The position numbers and the translations under genes are program-made. Positions 25,854-51,923 of a stretch of 55,520 nt of DNA are shown one piece after another; the stretch's first letter is position 1, and every line of letters begins with the position of its first letter. The stretch comes from Candidatus Aenigmatarchaeota archaeon (GTDB lineage: Archaea > Aenigmatarchaeota > Aenigmatarchaeia > CG10238-14 > SpSt-28): the NCBI GenBank assembly GCA_039000985.1, contig JAWBMD010000005.1:1-55520 (forward strand). Reading direction: 5' to 3'. Under the pieces are notes generated by a model that was not told the DNA's origin, did not search any database, and saw only the letters and a list, made by a program, of their open reading frames with translations.

Positions 25854-25883
25854 AATTTTATTACAGAAACTAAACTTTAATTA

Positions 25884-26759
25884 ATGGCAGAAACAATAGT
25901 TAAGCTATCTACATCTGTCTTTGGTTATTTATCATTTTTTTTAGCTACTTTATTCCCTGATTTGCAAAGCAATTTAAAAAAAGCAAAATATAAAAGAATG
26001 AGTTTTGAGCATATTTCTGTTTCTTTATTTTATGGTTTTTTATCATTTACAATTTCACTTCCATTTCTCTCAATAGTTACAAGTTTTTTTACTCAATCGG
26101 CAATAGTTGGTTATATGCTTTCCTTAATAATATCTTCTTCACTTTTTATTATGATTTTTTTTATTGTTTTAAGTTATCCAAAAGCTGTTGCTAAAAGTAT
26201 TAGTAAGGAAGTAGATAGCTATCTCCCATTTTTAGCTCTTAACATGTCACTTCTAGCTTCTGCAAAAATTCCATTTGATAGAATTATTTTAATGATTGGA
26301 AGATTAAAATTACCAAAAAAAGTAGAAAAAGAAATAAGCCCTTTAGTTTATGATATTGCTAATTTTGGCTTAGATGTAAGAAGAGCTATAGATAGAGAAA
26401 TAGAAAGGGTAGCTAGTGAAAATTTCAAAGAGCTTTTATATGGAATATCTTCTTTATTAAAAACGGGTGGAGATTTATCAAGCTTTTTAAGAGAGAAATC
26501 AAAAACATATATAGCAGAATATAGAAGAAAATTAATGGAATTTGCAAGAAAGCTTGGTGTTTTTACACAAATATATTTAATGTTAATAATAGTTGCATCA
26601 ATATTTTTAACTATATTATTAACTGTATTTGGTGCTATGCAAGAAATTGGTGAAACTGCAGTAATACTTCAATTCTTTTTAATAGCTGTTGTTATACCAA
26701 TGGTTTCAATAGCATTCATGTTCTTCCTTAAGTCAATAACACCAACAACACTTTATTAA
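25884..26759 (+). CDS. T2SS-F domain platform protein, FlaJ/TadB-C-like (first half)
   Basis: LPFLALNMSLLASAKIPFDRII...ISSLLKTGGDLSSFLREKS, followed by TM helices. Confidence 0.7.
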   Translation: MAETIVKLSTSVFGYLSFFLATLFPDLQSNLKKAKYKRMSFEHISVSLFYGFLSFTISLPFLSIVTSFFTQSAIVGYMLSLIISSSLFIMIFFIVLSYPKAVAKSISKEVDSYLPFLALNMSLLASAKIPFDRIILMIGRLKLPKKVEKEISPLVYDIANFGLDVRRAIDREIERVASENFKELLYGISSLLKTGGDLSSFLREKSKTYIAEYRRKLMEFARKLGVFTQIYLMLIIVASIFLTILLTVFGAMQEIGETAVILQFFLIAVVIPMVSIAFMFFLKSITPTTLY

Positions 26760-26760
26760 C

Positions 26761-27717
26761 ATGGAAAATAAAATAAAAATATTAATAGCTTCGCTAATAA
26801 TTTCAACTTTTTTAATATTGCTGGGAATAATAATGAACGATATAAGAATATTGGGAAATTCTTTCATAATCTCAATTGTTTTAATAATAGTTCCGCAATC
26901 AATATTTTATTATTTGGAATTTAGAGCAGCTAAAGAAATGGAGGAAAAATTTCCCGATTTTTTAAGAGATGTTGTTGAAAATATAAGAGCAGGAGTACCA
27001 TTATATCAAGCAATTTATTTTTGCTCTAAAAATGAGTATGGAAAGGCATTAACAAAAGAAGTAAGAAGAATGGCAAACAAAATAAGCTGGGGAATAAAGC
27101 TTGAAAAAGTTTTAGATGAATTTTCAAAAAGAGCTTATATTAGTAAAAAAATACCAATAGCTGTACAAATGATAAAAGAAGCTTACATTTCTGGCGGGGA
27201 TGTTGTAAATATTATGGAATATTTATCAGAAAGCTTAGTAGAAATAGAAAATGCAGAAAAGGAAAGAGCAAGCATTTTAAATCAATATGTATTTCTCATG
27301 TATACATTATCCATAATATTTTTAATAATAGTTGTTGCACTACATAGATTTTTAATTCCATTATTTTCAACAGTTGGAGGTGGAACTTTGCTTGAAGCGG
27401 GCAGAATGGAAAATCCTTGTATAAATTATGATTACACTGATATTTTGGGTAATTTTGTAAATGGAAATATTCCTGGATTTGTTTGTAGTTCCTTATATTT
27501 ATTTTCCTCTATACTATCCATAAATTTTGAAAATACATCCTCTTATTACTTAACACTATTCTTTTTAATGATAATAGTACAATCTACATTCTCTGGTTTA
27601 GTTGCTGGAGAAGTTTCTCATGGAAGCTTAAGAGCTGGAATAAGACATGCATTAACATTATTATTCATAAATTCTGGTATATTTATACTATTAGTCGGAC
27701 TAAAAATTCTTGTATAA
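26761..27717 (+). CDS. T2SS-F domain platform protein, FlaJ/TadB-C-like (second half)
   Basis: FPDFLRDVVENIRAGVPLYQAI...IKEAYISGGDVVNIMEYLSESL, plus TM helices. It starts 1 nt after the previous stop. Confidence 0.7.
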   Translation: MENKIKILIASLIISTFLILLGIIMNDIRILGNSFIISIVLIIVPQSIFYYLEFRAAKEMEEKFPDFLRDVVENIRAGVPLYQAIYFCSKNEYGKALTKEVRRMANKISWGIKLEKVLDEFSKRAYISKKIPIAVQMIKEAYISGGDVVNIMEYLSESLVEIENAEKERASILNQYVFLMYTLSIIFLIIVVALHRFLIPLFSTVGGGTLLEAGRMENPCINYDYTDILGNFVNGNIPGFVCSSLYLFSSILSINFENTSSYYLTLFFLMIIVQSTFSGLVAGEVSHGSLRAGIRHALTLLFINSGIFILLVGLKILV

Positions 27718-29692: not shown

Positions 29693-30085
29693 CTATTTTT
29701 GTTTATTTTCTAAATATTCTTCAATTATTTTCTTAACTTCATCTTTTGTAACAAAACTTGTTTTTAATGGATTCCATATATCAATATAGGTTTTAAGCTC
29801 TTCAACCTCATGCTTATATGCGAAATTTTTGATGTCTTTTTCTAGGCTTGAGGTTTTTTCTCCAATCAAATTAATAGCTTCTCCAAATACTTTCAAAGTT
29901 TCTTCAATTTTTTTTATTTGATCTTCAATTTTTTTTATTTCCTCTTTTAATTTTTCTTTAGATTCTTTTGTTTCGCTTTCGCTTCTTGCTAGTTTATCCT
30001 CTATTCCAATTATTCTTATATTTATTTCATTCAATCTTTTAACAATTTCCGAAATTACTATGTTAATATCTACTTTTTCTGGCAT
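29693..30085 (-). CDS. Coiled-coil protein of unknown function
   Basis: 130 aa with K/E-rich heptad-like repeats. No recognised family. Confidence 0.5.
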   Translation of the reverse strand: MPEKVDINIVISEIVKRLNEINIRIIGIEDKLARSESETKESKEKLKEEIKKIEDQIKKIEETLKVFGEAINLIGEKTSSLEKDIKNFAYKHEVEELKTYIDIWNPLKTSFVTKDEVKKIIEEYLENKQK

Positions 30086-30091
30086 TGTTTT

Positions 30092-30368
30092 GAACGGGAA
30101 GAACGCTTTTGCTCGATAGTGTATAGTTACAAGCTTTTCTGTTGAGCATCCTTTGCTATGTTATCTCATAAGCATAGATGATACAACTTACTCTTGCTAC
30201 CTTCCGGTCCTGGGAGATTCGTTGTATCATCTATCCTATGAGGCACAGCTTCATTGTTATCTCAACAGGGCTTGTAAGTATACACTACCTTACAAAAGCT
30301 TTCGAGTCGGCCATTATGGACCATTTGCCGATATAGGTGAGGCCCAGCCACCCAGCTCTATCTTCCCT
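30092..30368 (-). ncRNA. Signal recognition particle RNA (archaeal 7S)
   Basis: The minus strand reads GGGAAGAUAGAGCUGGGUGGCUGGG.... It contains CCCAGGACCGGAAGGUAGCAAG, matching the conserved helix-8 motif (CAGGUCCGGAAGGAAGCAGC in E. coli 4.5S). Long helix-5 complementarity is visible: GAUAGAUGAUACAAC/GUUGUAUCAUCUAU, CUGUUGAG/CUCAACAG and GGUAGUGUAUA/UAUACACUAUC. The 5' GGGAAGA pairs with the 3' UCUUCCC. Confidence 0.8.
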
Positions 30369-30412: not shown

Positions 30413-30970
30413 ATGAGTAATAAAGAATATAAAGTTAGTATTGAAAACATAGTATCCTCTATAAAGTTTCAGGAAAAAATACCATTAGATGAGTTGATAA
30501 ATTATAGCGAAAATATAGAGTATGAACCTGAGCAATTTCCAGGAGCTGTTTATAGAATAGAAAATATGCCTGTTACATCTTTAATTTTCAGTTCTGGAAA
30601 AGTAATATTAACAGGAGCAGAAAATACAGAAATGATAAATCAAGCTGTAGAAAAGGTAAAAAAGCTTTTAGAGAAAGCTGGTGTAAAAACTAGAAATATG
30701 GAGGAATTAAAAATAGAAAATATAGTAGCATCAACCAAATTTCCATATAGAATAAATTTGGATGTTTTGGCTTATAATTTGGAAACTACAGAATATGAGC
30801 CTGAGCAATTTCCAGGATTAATTTATAGGGATAAAGAATATAATTTGGTTTTACTTGTCTTTAACTCTGGAAAAGTAATATGTACTGGTGGAAAAAATGT
30901 AAAGGAAGTTAGAGAAGTTATAGATAAATTTTATAAAATTGTAAAAAAAGTTAAGGCTTTTGTAGAATGA
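30413..30970 (+). CDS. tbp: TATA-box binding protein
   Basis: Two direct repeats, each with IENIVSS/IENIVAS ... EYEPEQFPG ... SGKVILTGA/SGKVICTGG. Confidence 0.95.
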   Translation: MSNKEYKVSIENIVSSIKFQEKIPLDELINYSENIEYEPEQFPGAVYRIENMPVTSLIFSSGKVILTGAENTEMINQAVEKVKKLLEKAGVKTRNMEELKIENIVASTKFPYRINLDVLAYNLETTEYEPEQFPGLIYRDKEYNLVLLVFNSGKVICTGGKNVKEVREVIDKFYKIVKKVKAFVE

Positions 30971-32750: not shown

Positions 32751-35057
32751 GTGAAAGAAAATAAATTAGCTGAGATCTTATTCGACAGTGATGAAGTAGT
32801 AAAAGTAGAGGGTACTATCGATTTATCTAAATATAGATTTAGAAGAAAAAAGTTAAGCATTGATGAAATGCTAAATTTACTAAAAGAACATCCAAGTTTA
32901 GGGTTTAATGCTTATCAAAGATTGTATGCTGCTGTAAAAATGTTTGGAAGAATAGGAGATAGATGGAGAATATTAGATTATCCAATTATTAATCCTTATG
33001 TAGATAAAACAGAAGTAGGAGCATTATACGGAATAGAAAAAGAGTTTAATTCAATTGTTAATTACCTTAAAGGAGCTAGTGAAGGAAGACATGAAAAAAG
33101 AAAATTACTTGCATTATTTGGTGATGTAGGTTCAGGAAAAACCAATACAGTTAATTTGTTATCAGAAGCTTTATCCGCATATGGTACATTTCCAGAAGGA
33201 GAAGTATACACAGTTGTTTTTGATTTAAATGGATTTCTAAAATCTATAAAAGATGATAGTTTAAGAGATAATATAGGAAAGTTTATAAATGAAAAAATTC
33301 CGGGGGATGTTAGAGTGATAGAATGTCCTGCACATGAAAACCCTGTTTCCACTCTATTAGCTCTTAGCGAGGAAAGAATTATAGATGAAAATGTTAACGA
33401 AATTTTACAAGAAATAAATTCAAATGAAAAATACCAATGGAGAAAACTTGATGTCCCCTGTGCACCGTGTCCGCACTGTTCATTCGTTTTGGAATTATTT
33501 GGTGAAATATTAGATAAAAATAGAGATAAAATTGAAATTAAAGAAGCTATAAGGAGGTCAATATACTTTATTAATTTAAGAACACATGGAGTAAATCCAG
33601 AAGTGACAACAGTAGAATTTAGAATTCCTGATAAGAGATCTGAAGTAAGAACGATAGCATTTGAAGGTAGTTTTAGCTTGGAGAGAGTAGGAAAACTAGG
33701 TAGTAAAGAACATCCATTAGTTATAAACTTAGGTTTAGCCGGTGAAATTGATAAACCTTCATGTCAAAGAGGTTTACTTCATTTAACAGAGCTTTTAAAA
33801 TCTGATGAAGATATGATAAAACAATTATTAGATTTTGTAGAAACTCATAGGATTCGTATTGGTAGCAGGAATTTATCTGCATACTTAGATGCCGTGATGA
33901 TTTCTACTAGTAATCTCGACGAACTTATGAAAATAAGAGAAAGAGTTACTAAGACAATAGAAGACAGAATGTATAAAGTGGTTTACCCACATCCGGTTAT
34001 AATCGATGATGTTGAAAAGGCATTAAAAGGAAGAATATTTGCTGGAGAGACCTATCATATACCTCCACATTTTCTTAGGTTATTATCAATAATTTTTGTT
34101 TTATCTACACTAGAAGAACCTACAGAAATTAAAATAGGAAGCAAATCAGTAAAAATGAGTTTAATAGAAAAAGCACTTCTTTATAATGGAGAAGTACCAG
34201 CAGGAATGGAAGGAGATGCAGCTATTTTGGTACAGGAGTTAAGGAGAGTAGCTGAAAACAAAGATATTCGTGAAAGAAAAGAAGGTTTAATTGGAATTTC
34301 TATGCGATTAATGCAAGATTTAGCTTCTTATTTAAGAGGAGAAATAGAAAAAATAGTGAGAAAAAATAGTGAGAAAGGATATAAACCTTGTATAGCTATA
34401 TTGGAAAACGAATATTCAGATGGTATAAAAGGTTTTTTAGCTGATTTTTTTAATACAAACCTAGGAAAAGAGGAAGATAGAGAAACAAGAAGTAAAATAA
34501 TTCAGAATATATTACCTGTTGTTTTTGAACCAAATGAAAAGTATGGTTTATATTTACCACACCTTGCTAGTGATGTTAGAAGGGCAATTGTTGGAGATGA
34601 GAAAATTATTGAAGTAGCTATTACATATATTTCAATGATTATGGCGTCGGTGAAGAGAGATTCAGTTTTCGTGCATCCGATTCGCGGCACTCAACATGTT
34701 GTAGATGAAAAATTTATGGAAAGTATAGAAAAATACATGGGCGTATCATCTTCTTACAGGGAAAATTTTGTTGCAAAATTTAATTATCAGTTGAAGGCAA
34801 TAAAGAAATTGTATGGAACTGAAAAAGAGGCCATATTAAATTTTATTAAAGACTTTTTAGAAGAAGAAAAGAATTTTAGGAAAGCTATAGAGGAATATAC
34901 AGTTAGACAATATATTTCTGAGATAGCAAGGGATATTTCATCTGTTTATAATCCAAGAAATGAAGAATTAGTAGCAAAGTTAGTTAAAGAGCTTGGATAT
35001 TGTAATGAGTGTGCACAATATGCTATTAACATAGCAAGTAAGTTGAGACCAAAGTGA
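32751..35057 (+). CDS. prkA: PrkA/YeaG-family P-loop protein (putative serine protein kinase)
   Basis: 768 aa with a GTG start. YGIEKEFNSIVNYLKGASEGRHEKRKLLALFGDVGSGKTN parallels the YeaG N-terminal/Walker A region as I recall it. Confidence 0.8.
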   Translation: MKENKLAEILFDSDEVVKVEGTIDLSKYRFRRKKLSIDEMLNLLKEHPSLGFNAYQRLYAAVKMFGRIGDRWRILDYPIINPYVDKTEVGALYGIEKEFNSIVNYLKGASEGRHEKRKLLALFGDVGSGKTNTVNLLSEALSAYGTFPEGEVYTVVFDLNGFLKSIKDDSLRDNIGKFINEKIPGDVRVIECPAHENPVSTLLALSEERIIDENVNEILQEINSNEKYQWRKLDVPCAPCPHCSFVLELFGEILDKNRDKIEIKEAIRRSIYFINLRTHGVNPEVTTVEFRIPDKRSEVRTIAFEGSFSLERVGKLGSKEHPLVINLGLAGEIDKPSCQRGLLHLTELLKSDEDMIKQLLDFVETHRIRIGSRNLSAYLDAVMISTSNLDELMKIRERVTKTIEDRMYKVVYPHPVIIDDVEKALKGRIFAGETYHIPPHFLRLLSIIFVLSTLEEPTEIKIGSKSVKMSLIEKALLYNGEVPAGMEGDAAILVQELRRVAENKDIRERKEGLIGISMRLMQDLASYLRGEIEKIVRKNSEKGYKPCIAILENEYSDGIKGFLADFFNTNLGKEEDRETRSKIIQNILPVVFEPNEKYGLYLPHLASDVRRAIVGDEKIIEVAITYISMIMASVKRDSVFVHPIRGTQHVVDEKFMESIEKYMGVSSSYRENFVAKFNYQLKAIKKLYGTEKEAILNFIKDFLEEEKNFRKAIEEYTVRQYISEIARDISSVYNPRNEELVAKLVKELGYCNECAQYAINIASKLRPK

Positions 35058-35063
35058 AGAATA

Positions 35064-36920
35064 ATGCTGGAATTCCAGAAAATTCTTTCATTAAGGGAAT
35101 TTTACAACCATGTAAAAGAAGGTAAATATTCCTATTTAAATGTTTATGAAAGATTATACAGAAAATTATCTGAAGATTCAATTGGAGTATATCCTGGTAT
35201 AAAATTTTATAAAAATTTTTATAAAAATAGCACTATAAAAGGTTTACCAGAAGTTATAAATAAACTAGTAGATGCATTATTTATAGGCGATACTCTTTTT
35301 AAAAGTAGAGGAAAACTATCAATTCTATATCTTTATGGGCCAACCGGTTCTGGTAAAACATTAATTGGTAAAGCACTTGATAATATTTTTTATCATGATT
35401 TAGAAGAAAACCCGTGTATGAAAGTTGTTAAAATTATGAAAAAAGAAGATAATACTATAACAAGCATAGAGCCTGTATGTATTTATGGCGAATATCCATT
35501 AGCTGTTTTCACTTCAGATACACTAAACTTAACAAGTGATATAAAAAGTGAAATTACTAAAGAAACAAATTTTAATTATAAAATGAAGGCATGTGATAAT
35601 TGTATTAATGAAGTTAATAATTCGATCGTCGGAGAAATATACAAGTTACAACGTGATATAGAATTTCTCACAACAACTACTTTTAAACAAAAAATAAGTT
35701 CTAACACTTTATTAAAAATGCTAGATTCACTTTATGTAGTAGAGTATAAGCCTCAAAATTTAAGTATAGATTTCTCTAATGAAAAAATGCTTGAAATGAT
35801 CGAAGGTATAGTAAAAAAGAGTAATCGTGGTATACTACATATAAATGCAGATAATGTAAAAAATTTCAAGGATCAAAATGTTCAATTTCTTTTAAGAATT
35901 GCTGATGGACAAGTAACATTTGAAAACGCCTCGTCTGTTAGTTTAGATATGTTACCAATTTTATATTCTAATGAAGCTTTTTTCGAGTGGATAAAGGGTA
36001 ATACTGTGCTATATTCTAGAGTAATACCAATACCTGTCAGAAGATTATTGTCATATAGTTTAGAATCTGAAGTTCTAAAAAGCTTTATATTACCATTTTC
36101 TCATATTTCACCAAATTCATTGGAATTGTATTCGATGTTTATAATAGCTACTAGAATACAAGGTAGTTATTCCAATGAGATTGAGAATCTTTTAAGATTA
36201 TACGAAAAGTACGAAAATTATAGAGTATTGACAGAAGAGGAATTTAAAAAGATAAAAGAGAGATTAATGGGCGAAGTATTAAAAGATGGATGGGCACAAG
36301 GTTTAACATCAGAGGAAGCTGTTAAGTATCTTTATTCTTTGACTAGTGAAGATAGAACAAAGTGCTTAACACTAAGTACCATAAATAGTTTAACGAATAG
36401 TATAGTTTCAGAAAGAGGATATAAAATTCAAGCAGATATTATAAACAAAAAAATTGTTGAACATGCTTTAAAGGATATTATTATTGCTACAATGCTTGCT
36501 ATTGAAGATAAATTTCTAGAAAGCTTAGAAATGGAATTCGAGGAATATAAAAAATTGCACTATATGAAATATGCAAAAGGAGAAACATTTGTTAGAAAAG
36601 CTGGTGAGCTAATTAGTATAGATAGCGAAATGGAGAATATTCTCAAAAGACTTCTATTAGTTGATAAAAATAAAATTGATAATATTTTGACAACGGAAGG
36701 CGGAGCGGTAACTTTCTATTCTCTATTAAAAGAAAATCCCCAATTAATTGGGGCAGATGAAAGGATTAAAAAATATATTGACTGGAAAAATTTCGAACAT
36801 CTTGTTGGTGAAGGTATTGAAAGAAAAGAAAAAATAATAAACAAAATGATTACATTAGGTTATTGTAGAGAATGTACTATTTCTGCAATTAAAATAGCTT
36901 TGGAGAAATTGATAACATGA
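35064..36920 (+). CDS. Divergent second PrkA-like P-loop protein
   Basis: 618 aa. KLSILYLYGPTGSGKTLIGKAL lies in the same relative context as in the first paralog. Its C-terminal LGYCRECTISAIKIALEKL resembles LGYCNECAQYAINIASKL of the upstream gene. Confidence 0.65.
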   Translation: MLEFQKILSLREFYNHVKEGKYSYLNVYERLYRKLSEDSIGVYPGIKFYKNFYKNSTIKGLPEVINKLVDALFIGDTLFKSRGKLSILYLYGPTGSGKTLIGKALDNIFYHDLEENPCMKVVKIMKKEDNTITSIEPVCIYGEYPLAVFTSDTLNLTSDIKSEITKETNFNYKMKACDNCINEVNNSIVGEIYKLQRDIEFLTTTTFKQKISSNTLLKMLDSLYVVEYKPQNLSIDFSNEKMLEMIEGIVKKSNRGILHINADNVKNFKDQNVQFLLRIADGQVTFENASSVSLDMLPILYSNEAFFEWIKGNTVLYSRVIPIPVRRLLSYSLESEVLKSFILPFSHISPNSLELYSMFIIATRIQGSYSNEIENLLRLYEKYENYRVLTEEEFKKIKERLMGEVLKDGWAQGLTSEEAVKYLYSLTSEDRTKCLTLSTINSLTNSIVSERGYKIQADIINKKIVEHALKDIIIATMLAIEDKFLESLEMEFEEYKKLHYMKYAKGETFVRKAGELISIDSEMENILKRLLLVDKNKIDNILTTEGGAVTFYSLLKENPQLIGADERIKKYIDWKNFEHLVGEGIERKEKIINKMITLGYCRECTISAIKIALEKLIT

Positions 36921-38299
36921 GTTTACCTGTCGATCCTGTTGGTTCCTCAAAAATAAAATATAAGGAAAAGCTAGAAAGGGATAAAAATAAAGCAAATAAC
37001 ATTTTTCTACCATATCAAACTGATGAAGGCAAAATTTCATTACTTCAAATACCTTTTTTTGAGATAGAGGTTTTAGAATATGGTCCTAGATCCGATAGTC
37101 CAGTTTTAAAAAGTGGTTCATTACCCAACAAAGGAATGGGAGCACCTTCAATAGGTACTGGAGGTACAGGTATTTCTCAACCATCAGATTCAGGCGAAAT
37201 CTCTTTACCAGGTTCTGGTCTTCCAGGCTCACCACTTTATCCAGTAGAAGACGAAGGAGAAGGAGAGGGGAAGTTAGCTGGTGTTATACCAATGGATCCC
37301 ATAACAGGAAAACCTATTGAAGAAACAGTTAATATTGATGAGATAGCAAAGGAATTGGAACTTGAATTAATAAAGCCAGGTAAGATAGAAACTGAGTATG
37401 ATATAGAATTCCCATCTGTTGGAAAATCTGGTCCAGAAAATTTATTAGATTGGGATACTACGGTTATGTCATCTATAGAAAGACAAATGTTATTTAAAAT
37501 TATTTTGGATAAAAGAATTACTGAATTAAATGAAAAGAGAAAGGAATTAGAAGTAAAGTATAAGAATAAAGAAATAAGTGATGTAGATTATTCTATAGAA
37601 ATAGATAAGATAGAAAAAGCAGAGAAAAACTTGAAAGCATTATTAAAATATCCATTAGAAAATCCATTTAGGATTAAATCAATAGAAAAAGAAGATGAGA
37701 GATATATATTACCTGAATTTATACCTTTAGAACATAAAAGTTGTGTAATAATGTTTATTAGAGATATAAGTGGTAGTATAACTTTAGATCAATTAAAGGC
37801 ATCTTCAAAATTAAGTAGTTGGATAGAAGAATGGGTAAAAAAGTTTTATGAAAATACAAAATTAATATACATTCTCCATAACTACGATGCTTGGGAGGTT
37901 GAAAGAGAAGATTATTATGGTGTAGTTGAAAGTGGTGGCGGTACTAGATTTTCTTCGGCATATGAAATAGTTTTAAAGATTTTTATGGGAGAAAAATATA
38001 GTAGTAAAGCTAAGGAAATAAAGAAAATTAATCCAGATATAATTGATGTTTACATTGTTCAAATAACCGATGGTTTTGGACAATCTAACGAAGAAGAAGT
38101 AAAACCACTTAAAGAAATAATGCCAAAAATAACAAGATTCTGCTATGTACAAGAAGAACAAGGTGGTTATATATCAGAATATAAAGAATATCTTGAAAAG
38201 CTATTTGGGAAAGAAAAATTAAGAACAACATCTCTTAAGGGATATGAGGATGAAGATATAAAAAATGCTATGAGAGATTTATTTGGTAAAAGAAAATGA
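36917..38299 (+). CDS. DUF444 (YeaH/YhbH)-family protein with vWA-like domain
   Basis: It has a G/P/S-rich acidic tract (GMGAPSIGTGGTGISQPSDSGE...EDEGEGEG), a MIDAS-like IRDISGSI, and ITDGFGQSN. 4-nt overlap with the upstream gene. Confidence 0.75.
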   Translation: MSLPVDPVGSSKIKYKEKLERDKNKANNIFLPYQTDEGKISLLQIPFFEIEVLEYGPRSDSPVLKSGSLPNKGMGAPSIGTGGTGISQPSDSGEISLPGSGLPGSPLYPVEDEGEGEGKLAGVIPMDPITGKPIEETVNIDEIAKELELELIKPGKIETEYDIEFPSVGKSGPENLLDWDTTVMSSIERQMLFKIILDKRITELNEKRKELEVKYKNKEISDVDYSIEIDKIEKAEKNLKALLKYPLENPFRIKSIEKEDERYILPEFIPLEHKSCVIMFIRDISGSITLDQLKASSKLSSWIEEWVKKFYENTKLIYILHNYDAWEVEREDYYGVVESGGGTRFSSAYEIVLKIFMGEKYSSKAKEIKKINPDIIDVYIVQITDGFGQSNEEEVKPLKEIMPKITRFCYVQEEQGGYISEYKEYLEKLFGKEKLRTTSLKGYEDEDIKNAMRDLFGKRK

Positions 38300-39909
38300 A
38301 AACAAGAGTTTTTTCTGGTTATAAATTGGATGAATATTGGACAGAGATAGCCCAGAATATAGCTGAAAAAATGGAAAATAAATATAAATTGGATTTACCA
38401 AACATAGATTATTATTTTATTTCCTTAGATGAAATGGCATCCATAAAAGCTACACATGGATGGATTGTTTTTCCACATTCCTGGGAAGAAGGGCAATCAT
38501 ATTATCTGAATAAAATGATACAAAAATTGTATGGAGAAAGTGTTTTTGAGATAGTGGTTAATAGTTATGATGAGATAAGGAATACATCAGTAACTGCATA
38601 TATTAACAAAAGTATTAGTGATTCTGCTAAAAAACTTGTTATTGCACATGTATTGGGTCACGCGTATCTCTTTAAACATAATAATATTGAAAAGAAGTTT
38701 GAGGTAAACGATCCGGAATCATTTTTATATAGACTATCTCAAAAGATAAATAGATATGAGTATTTGTATGGAATAGAGGAAGTACAAGATTTTATAGAAA
38801 CTATAAAACATCTTTCAACACTAATAGATTTCTATCCACCTATAGAAGTAAAAGATGAGAGTAAAAAAGAAAGGAAGAAAATTATTGAAAAAATCCTAAC
38901 TAAAGAAATGTTTAAAAAGAAGATACCTGAGAAAAATGAATATGATATACTAGGTTTTCTAGCAAATTATGCTCCATTAGAAGATTGGCAAAAAGATTTA
39001 TTACTTGATTACAGGGAGTTATTCTATTTTTTATATTCTAGAGCTAGAATAAAGATTTTACATGAAGGATTTTCATCTTTAATAGAACTTTTATATTTTT
39101 TAGAATCTACTGAAGAAGAATTACCACTAAAGGAATGGATACCCTACTCTAGATTAATGGTATCGCTTAGAAGAGAAGTGCCAATAGGATCTTCAACAAT
39201 AAAAGAAGGATTTGACCCATATTTTTTAGGTTATTATTTATTGCTTTATGGATTAATAAAGTTAACTTTTAAAGAATATGGTGAAATACCTAAAAAGAAG
39301 TGGTATGAAAGAATAAGAAGAGAAGATTTTATAGATATTATTGAAAAGCCCGAATTCTTAGAAGCATGGGAAGAAGTTTTGGAGAAAGTAAAAGCATATG
39401 ACGATTTTCTATTAATAAAAGAGCTTTTTGATGAAGAGTTCTTCAACTCTATAGCTAGGAAATATTATTTTGTTTATGAGGGAGAAAATTATCCATGGAA
39501 CAAAAAAATAGTTGTTTCAAGAAGTTATGAAGATGTTTATAAAACTTTCCTTTTTTCTTCATTTAACATGAAATTACCTAGAGTTTACATACCAGAGGAT
39601 GGGGGCATGTATAATAAAAAAGAGAATGAAAAACTTGGTGAACTTTTGTTAATTCAAGATACATCATTCCCAGAAAGTTTAGGTATATCTAAGCAACAAT
39701 TAACTTTGGATGAAAGAAAGGAGAAGGAGGTTTTAAAAGCTTTGTTTAAGATATGGAAAAAGCCAGTTAATCTTAAAACATTTACAGTAGAGTTTGAATA
39801 TACTCCATTAGATCCATTTGATCCATCTTCACTCGAGGAAGCAAATGGAAAAATTAAAGAAATAATAGATAGATACGATGGCGAAAGTTTTAAAACAATT
39901 AATGTATAA
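38296..39909 (+). CDS. spoVR: SpoVR/YcgB-family protein
   Basis: 537 aa with VIAHVLGHAYLFKHNN and LHEGFSSLIE. 4-nt overlap with the upstream gene. Confidence 0.75.
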   Translation: MKTRVFSGYKLDEYWTEIAQNIAEKMENKYKLDLPNIDYYFISLDEMASIKATHGWIVFPHSWEEGQSYYLNKMIQKLYGESVFEIVVNSYDEIRNTSVTAYINKSISDSAKKLVIAHVLGHAYLFKHNNIEKKFEVNDPESFLYRLSQKINRYEYLYGIEEVQDFIETIKHLSTLIDFYPPIEVKDESKKERKKIIEKILTKEMFKKKIPEKNEYDILGFLANYAPLEDWQKDLLLDYRELFYFLYSRARIKILHEGFSSLIELLYFLESTEEELPLKEWIPYSRLMVSLRREVPIGSSTIKEGFDPYFLGYYLLLYGLIKLTFKEYGEIPKKKWYERIRREDFIDIIEKPEFLEAWEEVLEKVKAYDDFLLIKELFDEEFFNSIARKYYFVYEGENYPWNKKIVVSRSYEDVYKTFLFSSFNMKLPRVYIPEDGGMYNKKENEKLGELLLIQDTSFPESLGISKQQLTLDERKEKEVLKALFKIWKKPVNLKTFTVEFEYTPLDPFDPSSLEEANGKIKEIIDRYDGESFKTINV

Positions 39910-43810: not shown

Positions 43811-46231
43811 ATGATAAAGAGGAACAATTCTAATAATTCATATTTTAAATATTTTTTAATGTATTTTTTGGTTTGCTCATCTGTTTTAATGTATTTTTTA
43901 GGTAATAGATTTCTTATTCTTTTTTTATTAGCAGTATCTGGAATTTTTTTCTTTAATTGGAAAAGAAGAGAAATTATTATTTATTATCTTTTTATTTCTT
44001 TTATAGTTATCTATAGATTAATTCTTGGAAATTTTCCAGTAATAATATTAGCTTCTACTCCAGTTCCATCCCCACCAACTGTAGTTGATAGTCCTGATCC
44101 TCAGCAAGGAGGAGGAACTATAACTTTTAGTTGTAGTCCAACTGCTTGTCAACCAGGAGCTTATGATGAATTAATTAAACTTTTAATTTGTAAAAATAAT
44201 TCTGCGTCATGTGTTTTAGGAAGCCAATGGAGCTATAGAAGACCAATTACAATAAGCAATACTCAAAATTCTAATACTTTAACTGATTATCAAGTTTTAG
44301 TTACTAATCCAATTTATAATGAAACTGGCTTGATTGCAAGCTGGCATTTTAATGAAGGAAGCGGAACTATTGCTTTTGATTCCTCTGGTTATAACAACAA
44401 TGGTAATTTGGTTAATGGCCCCACTTGGGTTAATGGAAAATTTGGGAAAGCATTAAGTTTTGATGGAAGCAATGATTATGTTTCTACTGCTAATCAATTT
44501 AGTAATCCTCAAACATTTTCAATAGTTGTTTGGTTTAAAACAACTAGTAAATCTGGACGTAAAATTATTGGATTTGAAAATGCTCAAACAGGAACACGTA
44601 GTACTAGTTACGATAGACACTTATATGTTGGTACAGATGGTAAGCTCTATTTTGGTGTTCATGATGGATCAACTAGAACTATTTCTACTACAACTACAGT
44701 TACTGATGGTAATTGGCATTTTGCAGTTGCAACATTTTCTTCTAATGTAATGCGTTTATACTTAGATGGTAATTTTGTTAACTCATCGTCTACAGGAAGT
44801 GCACAAAATTACAATGGTTGGTGGAGAATAGGCTCTTACAAATGCGCTGGATGGCCAAATTGTGGAGATGGCTATTTCCCTGGTATAATAGATGAAGTTA
44901 GAATTTATAACAGAGCTCTATCTGCGTCTGAAATTCAAGCTTTATATCAAGCAAAAGCAAGATTGGATTATGGAGATATTAGATTTACAGATTCGGATGG
45001 AACACAATTAAATTATTGGCAAGAAGCAGATGGTAAATTCTGGGTAAAAGTTCCTTTTATTCGAGCTAGATCAACAAAAACAATTTACTTGTATTATGGA
45101 AACCCCAATGCTACTTCTGTAAGTAATGGGGATAATACTTTTATATTCTTCGACGATTTTTCAACCACCGATACTAACAAATGGCCAACTAGAGATACTC
45201 ATCTCCGTGTTTCTAATGGACTATTGGTCGGTTCTTCTACTGTAACAGAAAGCGGGTTGTGGTATTGGATTTCAAAGTCGCTTAGTTATGGTAATTTTAG
45301 TATCGAAGTTCTTCAGCGCACACCAAATGCAAATGGTGCTGAAGGTACTGTGTTGAGAGCAGAAACTAGTGGAGGCGGATACTATACTTTTAACAGCGAG
45401 GATTCACAAAGAGCTTTTCGTCTCTATCGCGGTACAACACAACTTGCCTCACTAACATCCCAACCGACAGCTACAGATTGGCAAATTCTTAGATTTAATT
45501 TTAATGGAACTATGCTAGAAGGCTATCGTGGCAATTCTTTAAAAGTCAGTGCTTCAGATTCAACATATAAAAGCTTTACTTTATTTAGATTAGGTCATTT
45601 AGATGGTTCAACCGCATATTCGGCAACTACCTATATAGATTGGGTTCGTATTCGCAAATACACTTCTCCAGAACCAACAACAAGCATAGGAAATGAAGAA
45701 ACTAATATAGCTTCTAATTATCTTTGGAATCAATCTTCAGCTGTAGCAAGCAATCCAACAGCAACTTATACTTGCCCTTCTTGTACATCCGCTACAAACA
45801 CTTATTATGGAGTTACTTATAGTGTTGATGAAGCAGTATGGACAAATTTTACTCAAGCTTTAAGTTTTACTTGTAAAAAAGAAAGTTCTTGTCCTTGTAC
45901 TAATCATAGAGAATGTTTTAATTATTGTTCAAATTGGATTTATAAGGATGGTACTTGTTATGAGGGCAGATGCTGGAATGCACATGAAGGCAGTCAATAT
46001 GGTGCACAACAATCATGCATAAATGGTATTTTGCTTGAAAATAATCAAAATTATAATAGATATTTAAATGTTAATGGTGAACTTTACTATTGTAAAGGTT
46101 CTGATAATTCCGATTCTCCCTATCCATTTGTTGAAAATGTATCTTCTAATAACAAAGTAGGATTTTGTACTTGTTTAAGTGATGGAAATTGGAGTTGTAC
46201 TAGACCTAAAGTAAAAATCAGAATTATTTAA
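43811..46231 (+). CDS. Membrane-anchored surface protein with LamG (Laminin_G_3), DUF2341 and Cys-rich C-terminal domains
   Basis: The N-terminal part has 3 helices followed by a PVPSPPTVVDSPDP linker. The LamG region reads WHFNEGSGTIAFDSSGYNNNGNLVNGPTWVNGKFGKALSFDGSNDYV...DGNWHFAVATF...MRLYLDGN...IDEVRIYNRALSASEIQALY. The DUF2341-like region reads DIRFTDSDGTQLNYWQE...FWVKVPFI...IYLYYGNPNA. The C-terminus is rich in Cys. Confidence 0.8.
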   Translation: MIKRNNSNNSYFKYFLMYFLVCSSVLMYFLGNRFLILFLLAVSGIFFFNWKRREIIIYYLFISFIVIYRLILGNFPVIILASTPVPSPPTVVDSPDPQQGGGTITFSCSPTACQPGAYDELIKLLICKNNSASCVLGSQWSYRRPITISNTQNSNTLTDYQVLVTNPIYNETGLIASWHFNEGSGTIAFDSSGYNNNGNLVNGPTWVNGKFGKALSFDGSNDYVSTANQFSNPQTFSIVVWFKTTSKSGRKIIGFENAQTGTRSTSYDRHLYVGTDGKLYFGVHDGSTRTISTTTTVTDGNWHFAVATFSSNVMRLYLDGNFVNSSSTGSAQNYNGWWRIGSYKCAGWPNCGDGYFPGIIDEVRIYNRALSASEIQALYQAKARLDYGDIRFTDSDGTQLNYWQEADGKFWVKVPFIRARSTKTIYLYYGNPNATSVSNGDNTFIFFDDFSTTDTNKWPTRDTHLRVSNGLLVGSSTVTESGLWYWISKSLSYGNFSIEVLQRTPNANGAEGTVLRAETSGGGYYTFNSEDSQRAFRLYRGTTQLASLTSQPTATDWQILRFNFNGTMLEGYRGNSLKVSASDSTYKSFTLFRLGHLDGSTAYSATTYIDWVRIRKYTSPEPTTSIGNEETNIASNYLWNQSSAVASNPTATYTCPSCTSATNTYYGVTYSVDEAVWTNFTQALSFTCKKESSCPCTNHRECFNYCSNWIYKDGTCYEGRCWNAHEGSQYGAQQSCINGILLENNQNYNRYLNVNGELYYCKGSDNSDSPYPFVENVSSNNKVGFCTCLSDGNWSCTRPKVKIRII

Positions 46232-46778
46232 TAAATGCAAATATTAAAACAACAGCTATGATAAAAATAAAAACAATTATTGTTGTTATTACTTCTTCTG
46301 GAATTTCACCAAATATAACACCTCTCGGAAATAGTATAGAAGTTAATCCAGATGTGAATAATAGTCCAACACCTATTAATATTCCTATTATTGCTAAAGA
46401 AAAGTAAAAAGCTGTTTTTCTATTACCTATTAGTTCTGCAAACTTTTCAGGTAGATTAGGTCCAATGAACATACTCATTATTAAAATACCAATAATAAAT
46501 ACAAACATTATTGAAAGTCCTTGCATTATAAATAATGAAAGCATTTTTTCAAAGTTTGTTATTCCTAATAGAATTGGAGAAGCCCAAACTAAAAGTGCCG
46601 CACTTAGTGCAATTATTGCATTAACAACTACATTTCTATCAGGATCCCCAAACAATTGACTTTTTCTTAAAAGTCCATAAAATATTGCCGAAGTTATCAT
46701 GTAAGGTAAAATAAATTGAAAAAATCCTATTGCTTCCAAATTTCTTATTGCAATTTCAATTGGTGTTTGGAAAATCAT
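46224..46778 (-). CDS. Polytopic membrane protein, paralog 1 of a four-gene tandem family
   Basis: GFFQFILPYMITSAIFYGLLRKSQLFGDPDRNVVVNAIIALSAAL. Roughly 5 TM helices. Confidence 0.6.
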   Translation of the reverse strand: MIFQTPIEIAIRNLEAIGFFQFILPYMITSAIFYGLLRKSQLFGDPDRNVVVNAIIALSAALLVWASPILLGITNFEKMLSLFIMQGLSIMFVFIIGILIMSMFIGPNLPEKFAELIGNRKTAFYFSLAIIGILIGVGLLFTSGLTSILFPRGVIFGEIPEEVITTIIVFIFIIAVVLIFAFIK

Positions 46779-46781
46779 TTT

Positions 46782-47324
46782 TCATTCGCCCCTTGTTGAT
46801 GCCGCTCCAATTAAAATTATTACTAAAAAAATAAATATTGCTGCTATAAAAACAGTAACATTTGGTGGAATTGGAGCACCTTTTATACCTTTATCACCCG
46901 CATCTCCTAAAGAAAATGTGAGTATTCCAATTAAGTTGCTTGTTATTAAAAGTATAAACGCTAGTGCAAACATTACCCAGATTTGAGTTCTTCTAGTAAA
47001 TAATTTTCCAATAGTTTCCCAAAGATTTGGATAAAAAAAACTAGCCAATAAAAGTGAAAAAACAAGAATAATTAAAAACAAAGATAGTTGAGCAAAGTAT
47101 AGTGAAAAATTAAAAACATAATTAATTCCGCTTAAGTATGGAAATGCAAATATGAAGAATGAAACAGTTAAAGCCACTATACCATTTATAAAAGCAGATT
47201 CCCCAAGCAATTTTGTTCTTCTCAATATACCATAAATTATTGCAGAAAACAAAATCCAAAGCAAAAGATTGAAAAATCCACTTCTTGAAAGAAAATCTAT
47301 AGCTGATGAAAATATATCTGCCAT
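46782..47324 (-). CDS. Polytopic membrane protein, paralog 2
   Basis: GFFNLLLWILFSAIIYGILRRTKLLGESAFINGIVALTVSF. The PNL motif is shared with paralog 1. Confidence 0.6.
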   Translation of the reverse strand: MADIFSSAIDFLSRSGFFNLLLWILFSAIIYGILRRTKLLGESAFINGIVALTVSFFIFAFPYLSGINYVFNFSLYFAQLSLFLIILVFSLLLASFFYPNLWETIGKLFTRRTQIWVMFALAFILLITSNLIGILTFSLGDAGDKGIKGAPIPPNVTVFIAAIFIFLVIILIGAASTRGE

Positions 47325-47333
47325 AATTTTATT

Positions 47334-47837
47334 TCATGTCAAAAACTTATATATTATAATCAAAATTATCAGAAAAATAGCTAGTACAAGATATGGTACA
47401 AAATTCGGCCCAATATAGTTTTCTAGATTTATTTCAAAATATAATGGAATAAATAATCCAGTTGTTATAGCAAATATTAAAGCTATTATAAAACCTAAAA
47501 CAAAAGAACCAATTCCCGGCTTGCCTCCTTTTAAAGATGAAATCATCATTGTAGATAATACGAAAAAAGCTAAGAAAACTATAAGGATAAAACCTCTTGA
47601 ATAAATATTTGCAAGTAAATTACTCCAATTTATATTAAGTGGGTTATAAAATACTATTAAAAAAGAAAGAGAGAGTGATATTATTACATTTATTTTTTTT
47701 GCTAAGTTTCCTTCTCCAAATACCTTAGATTTTTTTAGTAGGATATAAAAAGTTAAAAAAATTATTATGAAAGGAATGAAATAATCTATAAGCAAAGGGA
47801 TTCCCATTCTTCTATTTGTGGAGAAATATAGCTCCAA
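47334..47837 (-). CDS. Polytopic membrane protein, paralog 3
   Basis: LIDYFIPFIIIFLTFYILLKKSKVFGEGNLAKKINVIISLSLSF. The true start is probably MGIPLL at 47807. Confidence 0.55.
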   Translation of the reverse strand: MELYFSTNRRMGIPLLIDYFIPFIIIFLTFYILLKKSKVFGEGNLAKKINVIISLSLSFLIVFYNPLNINWSNLLANIYSRGFILIVFLAFFVLSTMMISSLKGGKPGIGSFVLGFIIALIFAITTGLFIPLYFEINLENYIGPNFVPYLVLAIFLIILIIIYKFLT

Positions 47838-48349
47838 ATATAACCAAACATTCCAACAACTATTATTAAAAATATTATTCCTGGAAAAACTACTCCACCA
47901 GTTCTAAATGTTGCTAATCCAACTAAAAATGCAGAAAGTATAAAACCAATAGCTGCCCAGAATAATACTTGTTTTAATGACGCTGTTATCGGTTGATAAT
48001 GGAGTATTGCTATTGATAAAGCCAAACTAATTAAAATAGCTACTTTTCTAGCAGTAGATGGTATTTCGGCTATTTTTTTCTCTGTTAGTGGTCCCGCGCT
48101 AACTTCCTCTCTTCCGAGTGTTTGTAAAAATACAAAATAAAATACAAAGAAGAATATTGAAATAAAAAATATGAATGGTACTAACTTTACAGCACCTATA
48201 CATTTTATGCATGTTGGAGATATTGAGGAGCTACAAATAGATGGCAATTCCCCAAAAATTAATGAAAGAATTGATAATGTCCATTCTTCAGAGCTATATT
48301 GTGCAAATACTAACGGAAGCAAAATTAACATTAATATTAGCTTTTTCAT
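47786..48349 (-). CDS. Membrane protein with signal peptide and Cys-rich ectodomain, distant paralog 4
   Basis: MKKLILMLILLPLVFAQ is signal-like. ICSSSISPTCIKC and FVFYFVFLQTLGREE...KVAILISLALSI echo the family motif. Confidence 0.5.
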   Translation of the reverse strand: MKKLILMLILLPLVFAQYSSEEWTLSILSLIFGELPSICSSSISPTCIKCIGAVKLVPFIFFISIFFFVFYFVFLQTLGREEVSAGPLTEKKIAEIPSTARKVAILISLALSIAILHYQPITASLKQVLFWAAIGFILSAFLVGLATFRTGGVVFPGIIFLIIVVGMFGYIWSYISPQIEEWESLCL

Positions 48350-49549: not shown

Positions 49550-51523
49550 ATGAAGCTTATATCGAAATTTTCTTTCATGTTAATATTTATTTTATTAGTA
49601 CCATTAGTTAGAGCAGACGGTATGCCTTGGCCAAGAAAACCAATTGTTTATGAATTTTCAGCAATACAAGAAAAAGATCAGATTGCTTTTATCGAGGTTT
49701 TAGATAAGAGCCGTGCAGTAATGCATCTTTATTTGTCTTTTGTTTCTATGGATGCGGATTATCACAACATAACTATAATACTCCCCTTTAAATCAATTCC
49801 ATATGCATTCCATGGTCAAAAGATGAAAGAAGATGTGTTTTCCATAAATTATGGAATTCCCCGAACAGAAACATTGGTCCAAAGTCAATCTTTTAGAACT
49901 ATGATTAGCAAAGTTTTAAGAGAAACTTCAACTGCTATAGAATCCTACTTTAGACTTGTATCTGGAGAATCGTTTTTTAAGTTAGTGCCGGTGATATATT
50001 ACAGTGGGAGATTAGCTGCTCCAATGGCTATGGTGCGGAACGAAACACGAGACGTTATTCCTGTTACACGATACTTATTTGAGGGAGGAGTCATAGATGT
50101 TTATGAGGTTTCGTCTGGTCAAACTCTTGCCGATTTCTTAAGTAGGCAATATCAGATAGAGTTACCAGAAAAGGTAAGAGAGGCTATAGATAAGTACGGT
50201 AGCCACTATATTGGTGTATTAACTGTGGATATTCAACCACCAGTTTCTAAAGGAGTTCTTGATAGCTTAGAAAATATATGCCCAAATACGCTGAGAGAGA
50301 TGAAGGATTATGTTACAACACATCCTTTTATAAAAATTGAAGTTCCAGGATGGTATAGATCACGAGGTGTTGAAGAAACTTGGTTCCCCTCTTATTATGA
50401 ATGGGATCCAGTTAAAATCGAGATAAAACATATGTTTTCAGATTTCATTAAAAAGTGTAGAGAAGAAAGTAGTAAAGCAGAAAACTTTATACCAATAAGT
50501 GGAGAAGTTGATGGGTATAACCACTTATGCATAAAAGTAAAGGATATAAAGGCAGGAGACACATTATCTTTTGAATATAGAAGTATTAACGATACATACC
50601 CTAGGGTTTTTATGATTGGAATCGACTGTCCAGAGATAGCAGGAAAAAGGACATACTTATATTCAGGATGTGAAAATTGTAGAATAGGTAAATATTGTTA
50701 CATAGGAGGAAGAGTTTATTATGGAAGTTATAACTATACTTTTGCCTCTAATTTAGCAGGTGAGCACGAAATATGTACTTGGCCATCTAGTGAAAGAGGT
50801 TACAGATGGTTCGTGAAAGTTAGTAGGGGAAGTGTAGTAGATATAGAAAGAATTGTTGTAGAATTTTTCTATGGGGTTTATGTCAAAAGAGATACTGACA
50901 AGGGGGTTGAACTAAACATGGCTTTCAATTTGAAGGACAACGAGATATTCTATCCTTTGGGTACTGGAATGGCGTGGACACAACCAATAGAGAATATAAA
51001 AGTTATTGTTAAAGTACCGAGCAATTTAGAAGTTTCCTTTAAAGGATTTCAATATTCTGGAATTGGAGAAGGATGGAGATATTATGTGTGGAAATATGAA
51101 AATAAAAATCCAAGCGTAGATATAATAGGAAAGGTTAGAGATATCACAATCTTCACTATGGTTTATGATAGAATAAAGAGAGTCATAGAGATTGTCTATA
51201 ACAATAGTAGTTGGATCGATGCTATATTGATAATTTTAATATTTTCTTTTGCAGGACTTCTAACTCATCAAAAAATTAAAGAACCAAAAAAGTTTTTCAT
51301 TTCCAAACCCAAAAAAATAGACAAATCAACCATCTATACTATTCTTGCCACAGTACTTTTATCTCCACTACTTACGGTTTGGGCTACTCTAATCTTAATA
51401 GTTTTTTTAAGAGAAAGGCCAAGTAAAAAACTTTTAAAAGAAACTATTAAATTAATGGCTATACTGTTTATAACTTTAATAGTTATCTATATGGTAGTTA
51501 AAATGGCAAGTTGGTTAATATGA
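49550..51523 (+). CDS. Secreted protein with C-terminal TM helices, DUF2330-like N-terminal region (tentative)
   Basis: MKLISKFSFMLIFILLVPLVRA is signal-like. IDVYEVSSGQTLADFLSRQYQIELPEKVREAIDKYGSHYIGVLTV resembles my recollection of the DUF2330 core. Three C-terminal TM helices. Confidence 0.5.
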   Translation: MKLISKFSFMLIFILLVPLVRADGMPWPRKPIVYEFSAIQEKDQIAFIEVLDKSRAVMHLYLSFVSMDADYHNITIILPFKSIPYAFHGQKMKEDVFSINYGIPRTETLVQSQSFRTMISKVLRETSTAIESYFRLVSGESFFKLVPVIYYSGRLAAPMAMVRNETRDVIPVTRYLFEGGVIDVYEVSSGQTLADFLSRQYQIELPEKVREAIDKYGSHYIGVLTVDIQPPVSKGVLDSLENICPNTLREMKDYVTTHPFIKIEVPGWYRSRGVEETWFPSYYEWDPVKIEIKHMFSDFIKKCREESSKAENFIPISGEVDGYNHLCIKVKDIKAGDTLSFEYRSINDTYPRVFMIGIDCPEIAGKRTYLYSGCENCRIGKYCYIGGRVYYGSYNYTFASNLAGEHEICTWPSSERGYRWFVKVSRGSVVDIERIVVEFFYGVYVKRDTDKGVELNMAFNLKDNEIFYPLGTGMAWTQPIENIKVIVKVPSNLEVSFKGFQYSGIGEGWRYYVWKYENKNPSVDIIGKVRDITIFTMVYDRIKRVIEIVYNNSSWIDAILIILIFSFAGLLTHQKIKEPKKFFISKPKKIDKSTIYTILATVLLSPLLTVWATLILIVFLRERPSKKLLKETIKLMAILFITLIVIYMVVKMASWLI

Positions 51524-51545: not shown

Positions 51546-51923
51546 ATGATAGATTATCCGAACTTAATATCTATGGCAGGTTTGATAATGGGTATAGTTG
51601 GAATAAAAGTTCATGAGATACTAAAGGTCAATCTTAGTTGGAGAGTTTTTGCTTTCATTTTTTTGATGGTTGGCGAAATAGTACCAGATTTCATTCTTTT
51701 ATTTTTATCAACAGCACAAATGGATACTATTGTATTCTTCTTTTTCTACTCTTCATTTGTTGGGATGGCTTGTCTTGTATTCATGACGTTATTTGACTTG
51801 AGAAAAACTTTAAATAGTAATTATTGGTGTTTTATTCTTTCTTATTTTTTGGCTTTCTATGTTGTCTCTTTAATATTTAGTATTTTCGTTTATTTATCCC
51901 CTATTTATAAAGTATTATATTGA
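51546..51923 (+). CDS. Small 4-TM membrane protein
   Basis: 125-aa hydrophobic ORF, 22 nt after the previous gene. Confidence 0.45.
   Translation: MIDYPNLISMAGLIMGIVGIKVHEILKVNLSWRVFAFIFLMVGEIVPDFILLFLSTAQMDTIVFFFFYSSFVGMACLVFMTLFDLRKTLNSNYWCFILSYFLAFYVVSLIFSIFVYLSPIYKVLY

Follow-up and report, generated by a model that had tools for sequence, protein, structure and literature searches.

A family of tandem small membrane proteins in Aenigmatarchaeota with a possible accessory role in a type IV filament machine

Type IV filament machines are among the most widespread prokaryotic nanomachines, and next to their ATPase and platform genes several of them encode lineage-restricted small proteins with a single membrane pass, such as ArlX of the crenarchaeal archaella and PilN and PilO of bacterial type IV pili. 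Small membrane proteins are also encoded as tandem pairs, and such pairs often are heterodimeric transporters. Here, we describe an array of four tandem genes for small polytopic membrane proteins, designated M1 to M4, on the minus strand of a 55,520-nucleotide stretch (the window) of contig JAWBMD010000005.1 (assembly GCA_039000985.1) from a Candidatus Aenigmatarchaeota archaeon, an organism known from hot-spring metagenomes. The Aenigmatarchaeota are uncultured DPANN archaea that are thought to be host dependent, with surface machines as a likely means of contact. Homologs of the array were collected from related genomes, their neighborhoods were mapped, and the resulting pattern was compared with the systems named above and with other small membrane protein families.

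The four open reading frames (ORFs) lie where a first-pass annotation of this DNA had placed them, with lengths of 184, 180, 167, and 187 amino acids (aa), and all the signature motifs it had quoted for the first helix were found in the proteins. It had also called the family unrecognized, which held throughout the searches. Scans of M1 to M4 against Pfam, NCBIfam, PADLOC, and PHROGs returned nothing above noise (the one PHROG match had an E value of 0.1), and the family profile found a single PDB sequence at an E value of 0.054, which is noise as well. The AlphaFold model of M1, a short N-terminal helix followed by five long helices, has a mean predicted local distance difference test (pLDDT) score of 80 and reaches 92 to 98 across residues 21 to 60. 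When this model was queried with Foldseek against 350,542 PDB chains, 0 matches were obtained at E values up to 10, and the viral models of BFVD gave nothing meaningful. A scan of 2.9 million viral contigs likewise revealed no relative of the family. The protein family is new: it is annotated as "hypothetical protein" only, and neither the curated libraries nor the solved structures contain a relative that could be detected.

Several known identities were considered and rejected. Pfam scans of 58 homologs taken singly gave scattered weak matches to DUF350 (5/58), VirB3 (4/58), and PolyA_pol_RNAbd (13/58), which we judged to be compositional. The best DUF350 match, in homolog P0039 (31.5 bits), covers residues 77 to 175, in the poorly conserved C-terminal helices and outside the conserved core, and M1 to M4 themselves do not match DUF350 (PF03994). 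A type IV pilin or archaellin, which would have a short basic N terminus, a K/R-G/A/S cleavage site, a single hydrophobic helix, and a globular domain outside, was dismissed on the grounds that M1 to M3 were read as an amphipathic helix plus five membrane helices and that related loci encode pilins by separate genes. A platform protein of the T2SSF/PilC/ArlJ kind was set aside as well: neither M1 to M4 nor the 58 homologs match T2SSF (PF00482) in Pfam, and hhalign of the family profile with the 650-aa platform proteins encoded nearby gives a probability of 7%. The absence of a PADLOC match, of a PHROG match above noise, and of a relative in the viral contigs led us to discard an antiphage defense or phage protein.

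Within the array, M1 and M2 share 35% identity over 150 aa (BLASTP, E value of 3e-14), and M1 and M3 align at an E value of 5e-7. The profile of the 58 M1 homologs detects M2 at 1e-27 and M3 at 2e-13. In addition, hhalign relates M3-type to M1-type proteins with a probability of 97.7% over the N-terminal helix, membrane helix 1, the following loop, and helix 2. By these sequence comparisons, M1, M2, and M3 are clearly related, beyond chance. M4 aligns with M3-type proteins (84%, E value of 7.5e-6) and is found by the M3-type hidden Markov model among the ORFs of the window at 2.7e-5, with an hhalign probability of 0.9% against the M1-type. The claim of four paralogs therefore stands for M1 to M3, and M4 is a probable divergent member on moderate evidence.

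The start of M4 encodes a Sec-type signal peptide (MKKLILMLILLPLVFA/QY), as had been noted before. The "Cys-rich ectodomain" ascribed to it at the same time did not hold up in that form: the outside segment comprises approximately 35 residues with three invariant cysteines (C-x7-C-x2-C) and is followed by four membrane helices. Only five M4 homologs were found, all of them close relatives from a narrow clade, and they share four invariant cysteines, three in the outside segment and one as the penultimate residue at the C terminus. The AlphaFold model of M4, based on 6 sequences, has a low-confidence pLDDT of 57 and was excluded from the fold comparison.

The orientation of the M1-type proteins was derived from two features. 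Lysine and arginine residues are concentrated in loop 1 (mean of 3.6), loop 3 (2.9), and the C terminus (1.8) and are scarce in loops 2 (0.3) and 4 (0.2). Moreover, 11 representative homologs carry a Sec signal peptide directly upstream of the N-terminal helix, as M4 does. This charge bias and the signal peptides place the N terminus outside and the C terminus inside, with five membrane helices in between. M2 has its lysine and arginine residues, counted from the sequence, in the loops matching those of M1, which indicates the same orientation.

The conserved core consists of the outside amphipathic helix (residues 6 to 16 of M1), membrane helix 1 with its LPF kink, a cytoplasmic YGLLRKSxxFG turn, and helix 2, which starts with an asparagine. 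The invariant signature AIFYGLLRKSxxFG...N runs from where helix 1 reaches the cytoplasm into the first part of helix 2. The near-invariant positions of the M1-type cluster in this region; they are G18, P25, AIFYGLLRKS (31 to 40), G44, N53, A60, G72, F83, and G144. None of the membrane helices of M1-type, M2-type, or P3-type proteins (P3 being a third type, not present in the window) contains a conserved charged residue. Beyond this core the proteins vary, ending either in further membrane helices or in a charged coiled-coil tail in the cytoplasm. In the window's clade, M3 is a protein of five membrane helices without the N-terminal helix on the outside; the paralog at the M3 position in most other genomes has three helices and a strongly charged cytoplasmic coiled coil. 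The same coiled-coil tail is found in the longer paralogs of 243 to 327 aa. One homolog, P0177 (MBI2542841.1, Candidatus Aenigmarchaeota; 317 aa), combines a Sec signal and the five-helix core with a C-terminal Peptidase_S74 domain (E value of 8e-17). This domain is a trimerizing, self-cleaving chaperone of phage tail fibers, and its location would be cytoplasmic under the derived topology, which is odd.

To chart the distribution of the family, its M1 profile was run against 1.84 billion representatives, giving 1385 clusters at E values up to 1e-3 and 351 at 1e-10. (A profile made from a very diverse family alignment, A3, was too weak, with 7 proteins only.) All named sequences among the 61 M1 homologs belong to Candidatus Aenigmatarchaeota, and when each GTDB species was represented by a single genome, scanning yielded 48 loci, nearly all of them labeled Aenigmatarchaeota. 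Two loci bear other labels, Planctomycetota (L042) and Heimdallarchaeota (L045). Both are on short contigs (3.8 and 5.7 kb, respectively) with the c4/c2/array gene order typical of Aenigmatarchaeota described below, and the second also carries the pilus ATPase gene. These labels are probably binning errors in public metagenome-assembled genomes. Based on these searches, the family appears to be specific to the phylum Aenigmatarchaeota.

Tandem paralogs occur at all 48 loci, with two to five or more family genes each, and same-strand gaps between them have a median of 4 nucleotides (nt), with many overlaps of 1 or 4 nt. Genes were typed by position relative to the best M1 match, which formed one type, with the genes on its upstream and downstream sides forming the others. 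Without exception, the best match of a gene in another genome shared its positional type (44/44, 41/41 for the M2-type, and 32/32). Of the 44 position-typed loci, 41 have the M2-type gene directly in front of the M1-type gene, and almost no locus lacks the pair. By this test, the positional types behave as separate orthologous groups, and the duplications are therefore older than the sampled radiation of the phylum, each copy having been kept in a fixed order. Ancient copies maintained in this manner are what would be expected of nonredundant subunits of one complex. Homologous arrays outside the window are thus tandem and have conserved neighbors, rather than occurring singly with none, which favors the original proposal of a hetero-oligomeric membrane complex. 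The tandem arrangement at 48 loci, the short median gap, and the separate orthologous groups make that proposal a reasonable one.

In the window itself, M3 and M2 are separated by 9 nt, M2 and M1 by 3 nt, and M4 and M3 overlap, as read from their coordinates. M3 can start at an in-frame ATG at 47807 (MGIPLL...) or at an alternative TTG at 47837. Because of the in-frame ATG and the 157-aa gene call for M3 in the near-identical genome L055, the true start is most likely the ATG, in which case the overlap of M3 with M4 amounts to 22 nt. A Shine-Dalgarno-like motif, AAGGGG, is situated within the end of M2, directly upstream of the M1 start codon. The spacer between M4 and the divergent DUF72 gene measures 29 nt in total, and the TATA-like sequence ATAATAAA upstream of M4 is a weakly supported candidate for the promoter of a leaderless four-gene transcript, since chance motifs of that kind are common in a genome with 27% G+C, which is also the approximate composition of the AT-rich window. 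A scan for sigma-70 promoters and terminators was disregarded, as it is not meaningful in an archaeon. As for expression, a sediment metatranscriptome (run X14) contains a contig of 201 nt that aligns to positions 46597 to 46794, from the last part of M2 into the first part of M1, with one mismatch over the 198 aligned bases. It is the only signal found for this region in RNA runs and is weakly consistent with cotranscription of M2 and M1, being a single contig of low depth that could stem from DNA carryover.

The surroundings of the family were mapped by clustering all ORFs from 50 nonredundant loci. In the common arrangement, a platform gene (T2SSF, approximately 650 aa) and an ATPase gene (T2SSE, approximately 747 aa) point away from a divergent string consisting of c4, c2, and the family genes, which is followed further downstream by an oppositely oriented diphthine synthase gene and by TRM5 on the strand of the array. 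Here, c4 denotes a 131-aa coiled coil and c2 a 223-aa protein with a small helical domain and a coiled coil. The pilus ATPase gene lies at most 9 kb from the array in 29 of the 32 loci with at least 6 kb of upstream sequence, and in 29 loci the c4-c2-array string begins approximately 40 nt from this divergent gene. Gaps from c4 to c2 and from c2 to the array are mostly 24 to 49 nt, and sometimes the genes overlap. The order from ATPase to array is unchanged in two further loci, L056/L057 and L058, and extra paralogs accumulate specifically between the ATPase gene and the core array. Diphthine synthase is a neighbor in 33 of the 36 loci with at least 4 kb of downstream sequence, and conservation extends to TRM5.

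The ATPase is closest to GspE of Archaeoglobus (afGspE), CpaF, and FlaI, far below every NCBIfam cutoff. On the downstream side of the platform gene lie pilin genes, whose products, some short and some long, bear class III signal peptides; one example starts with MKKG/LSGFILAILI.... The ATPase/platform/pilin locus is genuinely Tad/type IV pilus-like. Profiles of c4 and c2 retrieved nothing but generic coiled coils from the PDB, and their matches to FliJ and DotF in NCBIfam were weak and far below the cutoff. In three related genomes (L050 to L052), the usual platform slot is held by a family paralog of 307 to 327 aa, convergent with the ATPase gene, in which a signal peptide and additional helices are combined with a long coiled-coil tail in the cytoplasm.

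The window belongs to a clade that departs from this map. Homologs of the pilus ATPase, the platform protein, and c2 were not found in the window, and its c4 homolog, in most other genomes the opening gene of the c4-c2-array string, is encoded approximately 16 kb from the array. In Pfam, this c4 homolog has weak subthreshold matches, mostly to coiled-coil-rich families. The near-identical genome L055 shares the M4-M3-M2-M1-LamG layout of the window, in which the last gene encodes a LamG/DUF2341 protein. Genomes L007 and L001 also have an M4-like gene and are without the ATPase gene within 8 to 10 kb of the array. In L001, which represents the wider clade of the window, genes for large proteins with pilin-like N termini flank the array.

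Our favored reading, held tentatively and argued from gene neighborhood alone, is that the array encodes a noncatalytic hetero-oligomeric membrane scaffold that is accessory to a type IV filament machine; the broader idea that the paralogs form a structural hetero-oligomer is probable. In this scheme, the paralogs would be made together and assemble into a complex that is neither catalytic nor ion conducting, because no membrane helix contains a conserved charged residue. The complex would act as a membrane scaffold whose conserved cytoplasmic face, along with the coiled-coil tails of some paralogs, would dock coiled-coil proteins and the motor of a type IV filament, with c4, c2, and the pilus ATPase as docking candidates. 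In the clade of the window, the array would have moved off the pilus locus, gaining M4 and a five-helix M3 and losing the P3 paralog. Among the functions first suggested for the array (channel, transporter, or base of a surface structure), the last fits best, given the pilus operon beside it in 29 of 32 informative loci. A more ambitious version, which we regard as unlikely, takes three to five ancient paralogs of the family to form an undescribed multisubunit ring or stator in the membrane, as part of an archaeal type IV filament machine. Such a structure would link the membrane with the ATPase and the coiled-coil proteins of the cytoplasm, would be unparalleled among the pili of bacteria and other archaea, and may underlie the attachment of these DPANN symbionts to their hosts.

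Several points weigh against a role in pilus function. No pilus ATPase gene is present within 8 to 20 kb of the array in the window, L055, L007, and L001, the housekeeping neighbors of the array are conserved equally well, and short gaps between genes are common anyway in compact genomes. To our knowledge, no type IV filament system contains comparable five-helix subunits. Proximity to the pilus genes could thus be inherited gene order, and the array could encode a hetero-oligomeric structural membrane complex unrelated to type IV pili, concerned, for instance, with envelope organization, surface-layer anchoring, a cell-cell contact site, or division with the two coiled-coil proteins. Diphthine synthase and TRM5 are at least as consistent neighbors as the pilus ATPase, the clade of the window retains the array without pilus genes nearby, and its c4 homolog is encoded beside the signal recognition particle (SRP) RNA and TATA-binding protein (TBP) genes rather than an ATPase gene. 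Against inherited order alone stand the 29 loci in which approximately 40 nt separate the c4-c2-array string from the divergent ATPase gene, the extra paralogs that gather precisely between that gene and the core array, and the pilin-like genes that flank the array in L001 as well. We consider a pilus-independent complex possible but rather unlikely.

A small heteromeric channel or transporter of the SMR or Fluc kind would agree with the tightly coupled M2-M1 pair in nearly every locus and with the frequent occurrence of heterodimeric transporters among such pairs. It is improbable, however, since, apart from one asparagine where helix 2 borders on the cytoplasm, the helices have no conserved charged or polar residue, and the motif that is conserved forms a loop on the cytoplasmic side. 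By their loop charges, M1 and M2 are parallel, whereas the partners in dual-topology transporters are antiparallel; many members have cytoplasmic coiled coils in place of the last helices, and no transporter matches the family in Pfam or by structure. The first-pass annotation had furthermore linked the array to the adjacent LamG/DUF2341 gene and, through it, to MotA/ExbB-type components. An energizing module of that kind, working with the LamG/DUF2341 protein, would be in line with the 8-nt convergent overlap between this gene and M1, which was verified (46224 to 46231), and with the Pfam description of DUF2341, which mentions some MotA/TolQ/ExbB proteins. Yet the two genes are adjacent only in the window and the near-identical L055 and in no other locus, so the functional link was rejected, and, being convergent, they are not cotranscribed. 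MotA_ExbB (PF01618) matches neither M1 to M4 nor the 58 homologs at E values up to 1, Foldseek found 0 PDB chains in a library presumed to contain ExbB, MotA, and TolQ structures, and the helices lack a conserved acidic or polar residue. The idea of a MotA/ExbB-DUF2341 module is close to refuted.

The genomic pattern is strong and clean, and the functional reading is drawn from it by neighborhood. If the array does encode part of a type IV filament machine, it would add a new kind of membrane subunit to that machinery and offer a concrete structural target for the attachment of DPANN archaea to their hosts. If the pilus reading is false, the array would still encode a core membrane complex that is conserved in a phylum about which little is understood. 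Either way, annotation can make use of the AIFYGLLRKSxxFG motif, of the N terminus lying outside, and of the constant order of the M2 and M1 genes, and the relevance lies mainly in the cell surface of DPANN symbionts and in genome annotation. The features of the window are listed in Table 1.

Table 1. Coordinates of the array and of other features in the window
Feature	Positions	Strand	Description
M1	46224-46778	minus	ORF, 184 aa; predicted core subunit, M1-type; most conserved paralog
M2	46782-47324	minus	ORF, 180 aa; predicted core subunit, M2-type
M3	47334-47807	minus	157 aa from ATG; ORF to TTG, 47334-47837, 167 aa
M4	47786-48349	minus	ORF, 187 aa; first gene of the array
TATA-like ATAATAAA	48373-48380	minus	24-31 nt 5' of the M4 ATG; read from the sequence
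LamG/DUF2341 surface protein	43811-46231	plus	806 aa; Pfam Laminin_G_3, E value of 1e-29; DUF2341, 3e-27
c4 homolog	29693-30085	minus	BLAST/phmmer against c4 of L003 and L005, E value of 2e-17
SRP RNA, archaeal	30095-30368	minus	118 bits; directly 5' of the c4 homolog, beside the TBP gene
TBP gene	30413-30970		
HerA-like DUF87 ATPase and metallophosphoesterase	19991-22044	minus	476 and 208 aa
PMT_2 glycosyltransferase and two T2SSF-domain genes	23949-27717	plus	T2SSF-domain genes of 291 and 318 aa, after the glycosyltransferase gene
PrkA-type four-gene string	32751-39909	plus	PrkA-type AAA kinase (768 aa), PrkA-like AAA (618 aa), DUF444 (460 aa), SpoVR-like (537 aa)
657-aa protein	49550-51523	plus	657 aa; Sec signal peptide, large ectodomain, C-terminal membrane helices
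Small membrane protein	51546-51923	plus	125 aa; follows the 657-aa protein gene

The LamG/DUF2341 protein has several N-terminal membrane helices and a Cys-rich C-terminal region, and its best NCBIfam match is a subthreshold hit to the TafC family fimbrial protein (E value of 1e-10; 41 bits versus a cutoff of 410 bits). DUF2341 proteins of methanococcal pilus loci have been proposed as tip adhesins (Makarova et al. 2016, PMC4858521). For the LamG/DUF2341 gene of the window, the place beside the array agrees with a surface-structure theme without being evidence for it.

Elsewhere in the window, the two T2SSF-domain proteins match the N- and C-terminal halves of an ArlJ/UpsF-type platform and represent a split platform gene, for which an ATPase gene was found neither adjacent nor elsewhere in the window. 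The 657-aa and 125-aa proteins encoded on the other side of the array have no Pfam or NCBIfam match, and both are conserved in L055. The gene for the HerA-like ATPase overlaps that of the calcineurin-like metallophosphoesterase by 4 nt and lies beside an IMP dehydrogenase gene. Modules of the PrkA/YeaH/YcgB type are best known from bacteria; the one in the window belongs to a DPANN archaeon and has PrkA duplicated.

Set against known families of small membrane proteins, the array shows partial likeness to several. DUF350/YjfL (PF03994) also comprises small multihelix membrane proteins whose function is not known, but it is matched by only 5 of the 58 homologs and, in P0039, outside the conserved core. 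The SMR proteins EmrE and EbrAB and the Fluc/CrcB proteins resemble the array in being small membrane proteins encoded by adjacent paralogous genes, which implies a heteromer. Their pairs are antiparallel and depend on an essential charged or polar residue embedded in the membrane, whereas M1 and M2 share one orientation and have no such residue. MotA, TolQ, and ExbB (PF01618) are likewise small, polytopic, oligomeric membrane proteins that serve a surface machine. In contrast to these, the array proteins do not have helices 1 and 2 separated by a large domain in the cytoplasm, and no gene for an ExbD/MotB-like partner was found in the 50 neighborhoods.

The closest parallel in role is offered by ArlX and by PilN and PilO. 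Unlike these single-pass proteins, the array proteins have three to five helices without a soluble domain, and they show no similarity to them in sequence or fold. Their link to a pilus, moreover, is one of gene neighborhood only and is absent in the window. Any correspondence would therefore be one of analogous role between unrelated proteins. As in ArlX and PilN/PilO, the array proteins are small, membrane anchored, and probably noncatalytic, their genes are found beside those of an ATPase and a platform protein in 29 of 32 informative loci, though not in the window, L055, L007, or L001, and their distribution appears to be restricted to one lineage. The cytoplasmic or periplasmic coiled coils that are frequent in those systems also have their likeness on the side of the array, in some of the paralogs and in c4 and c2.

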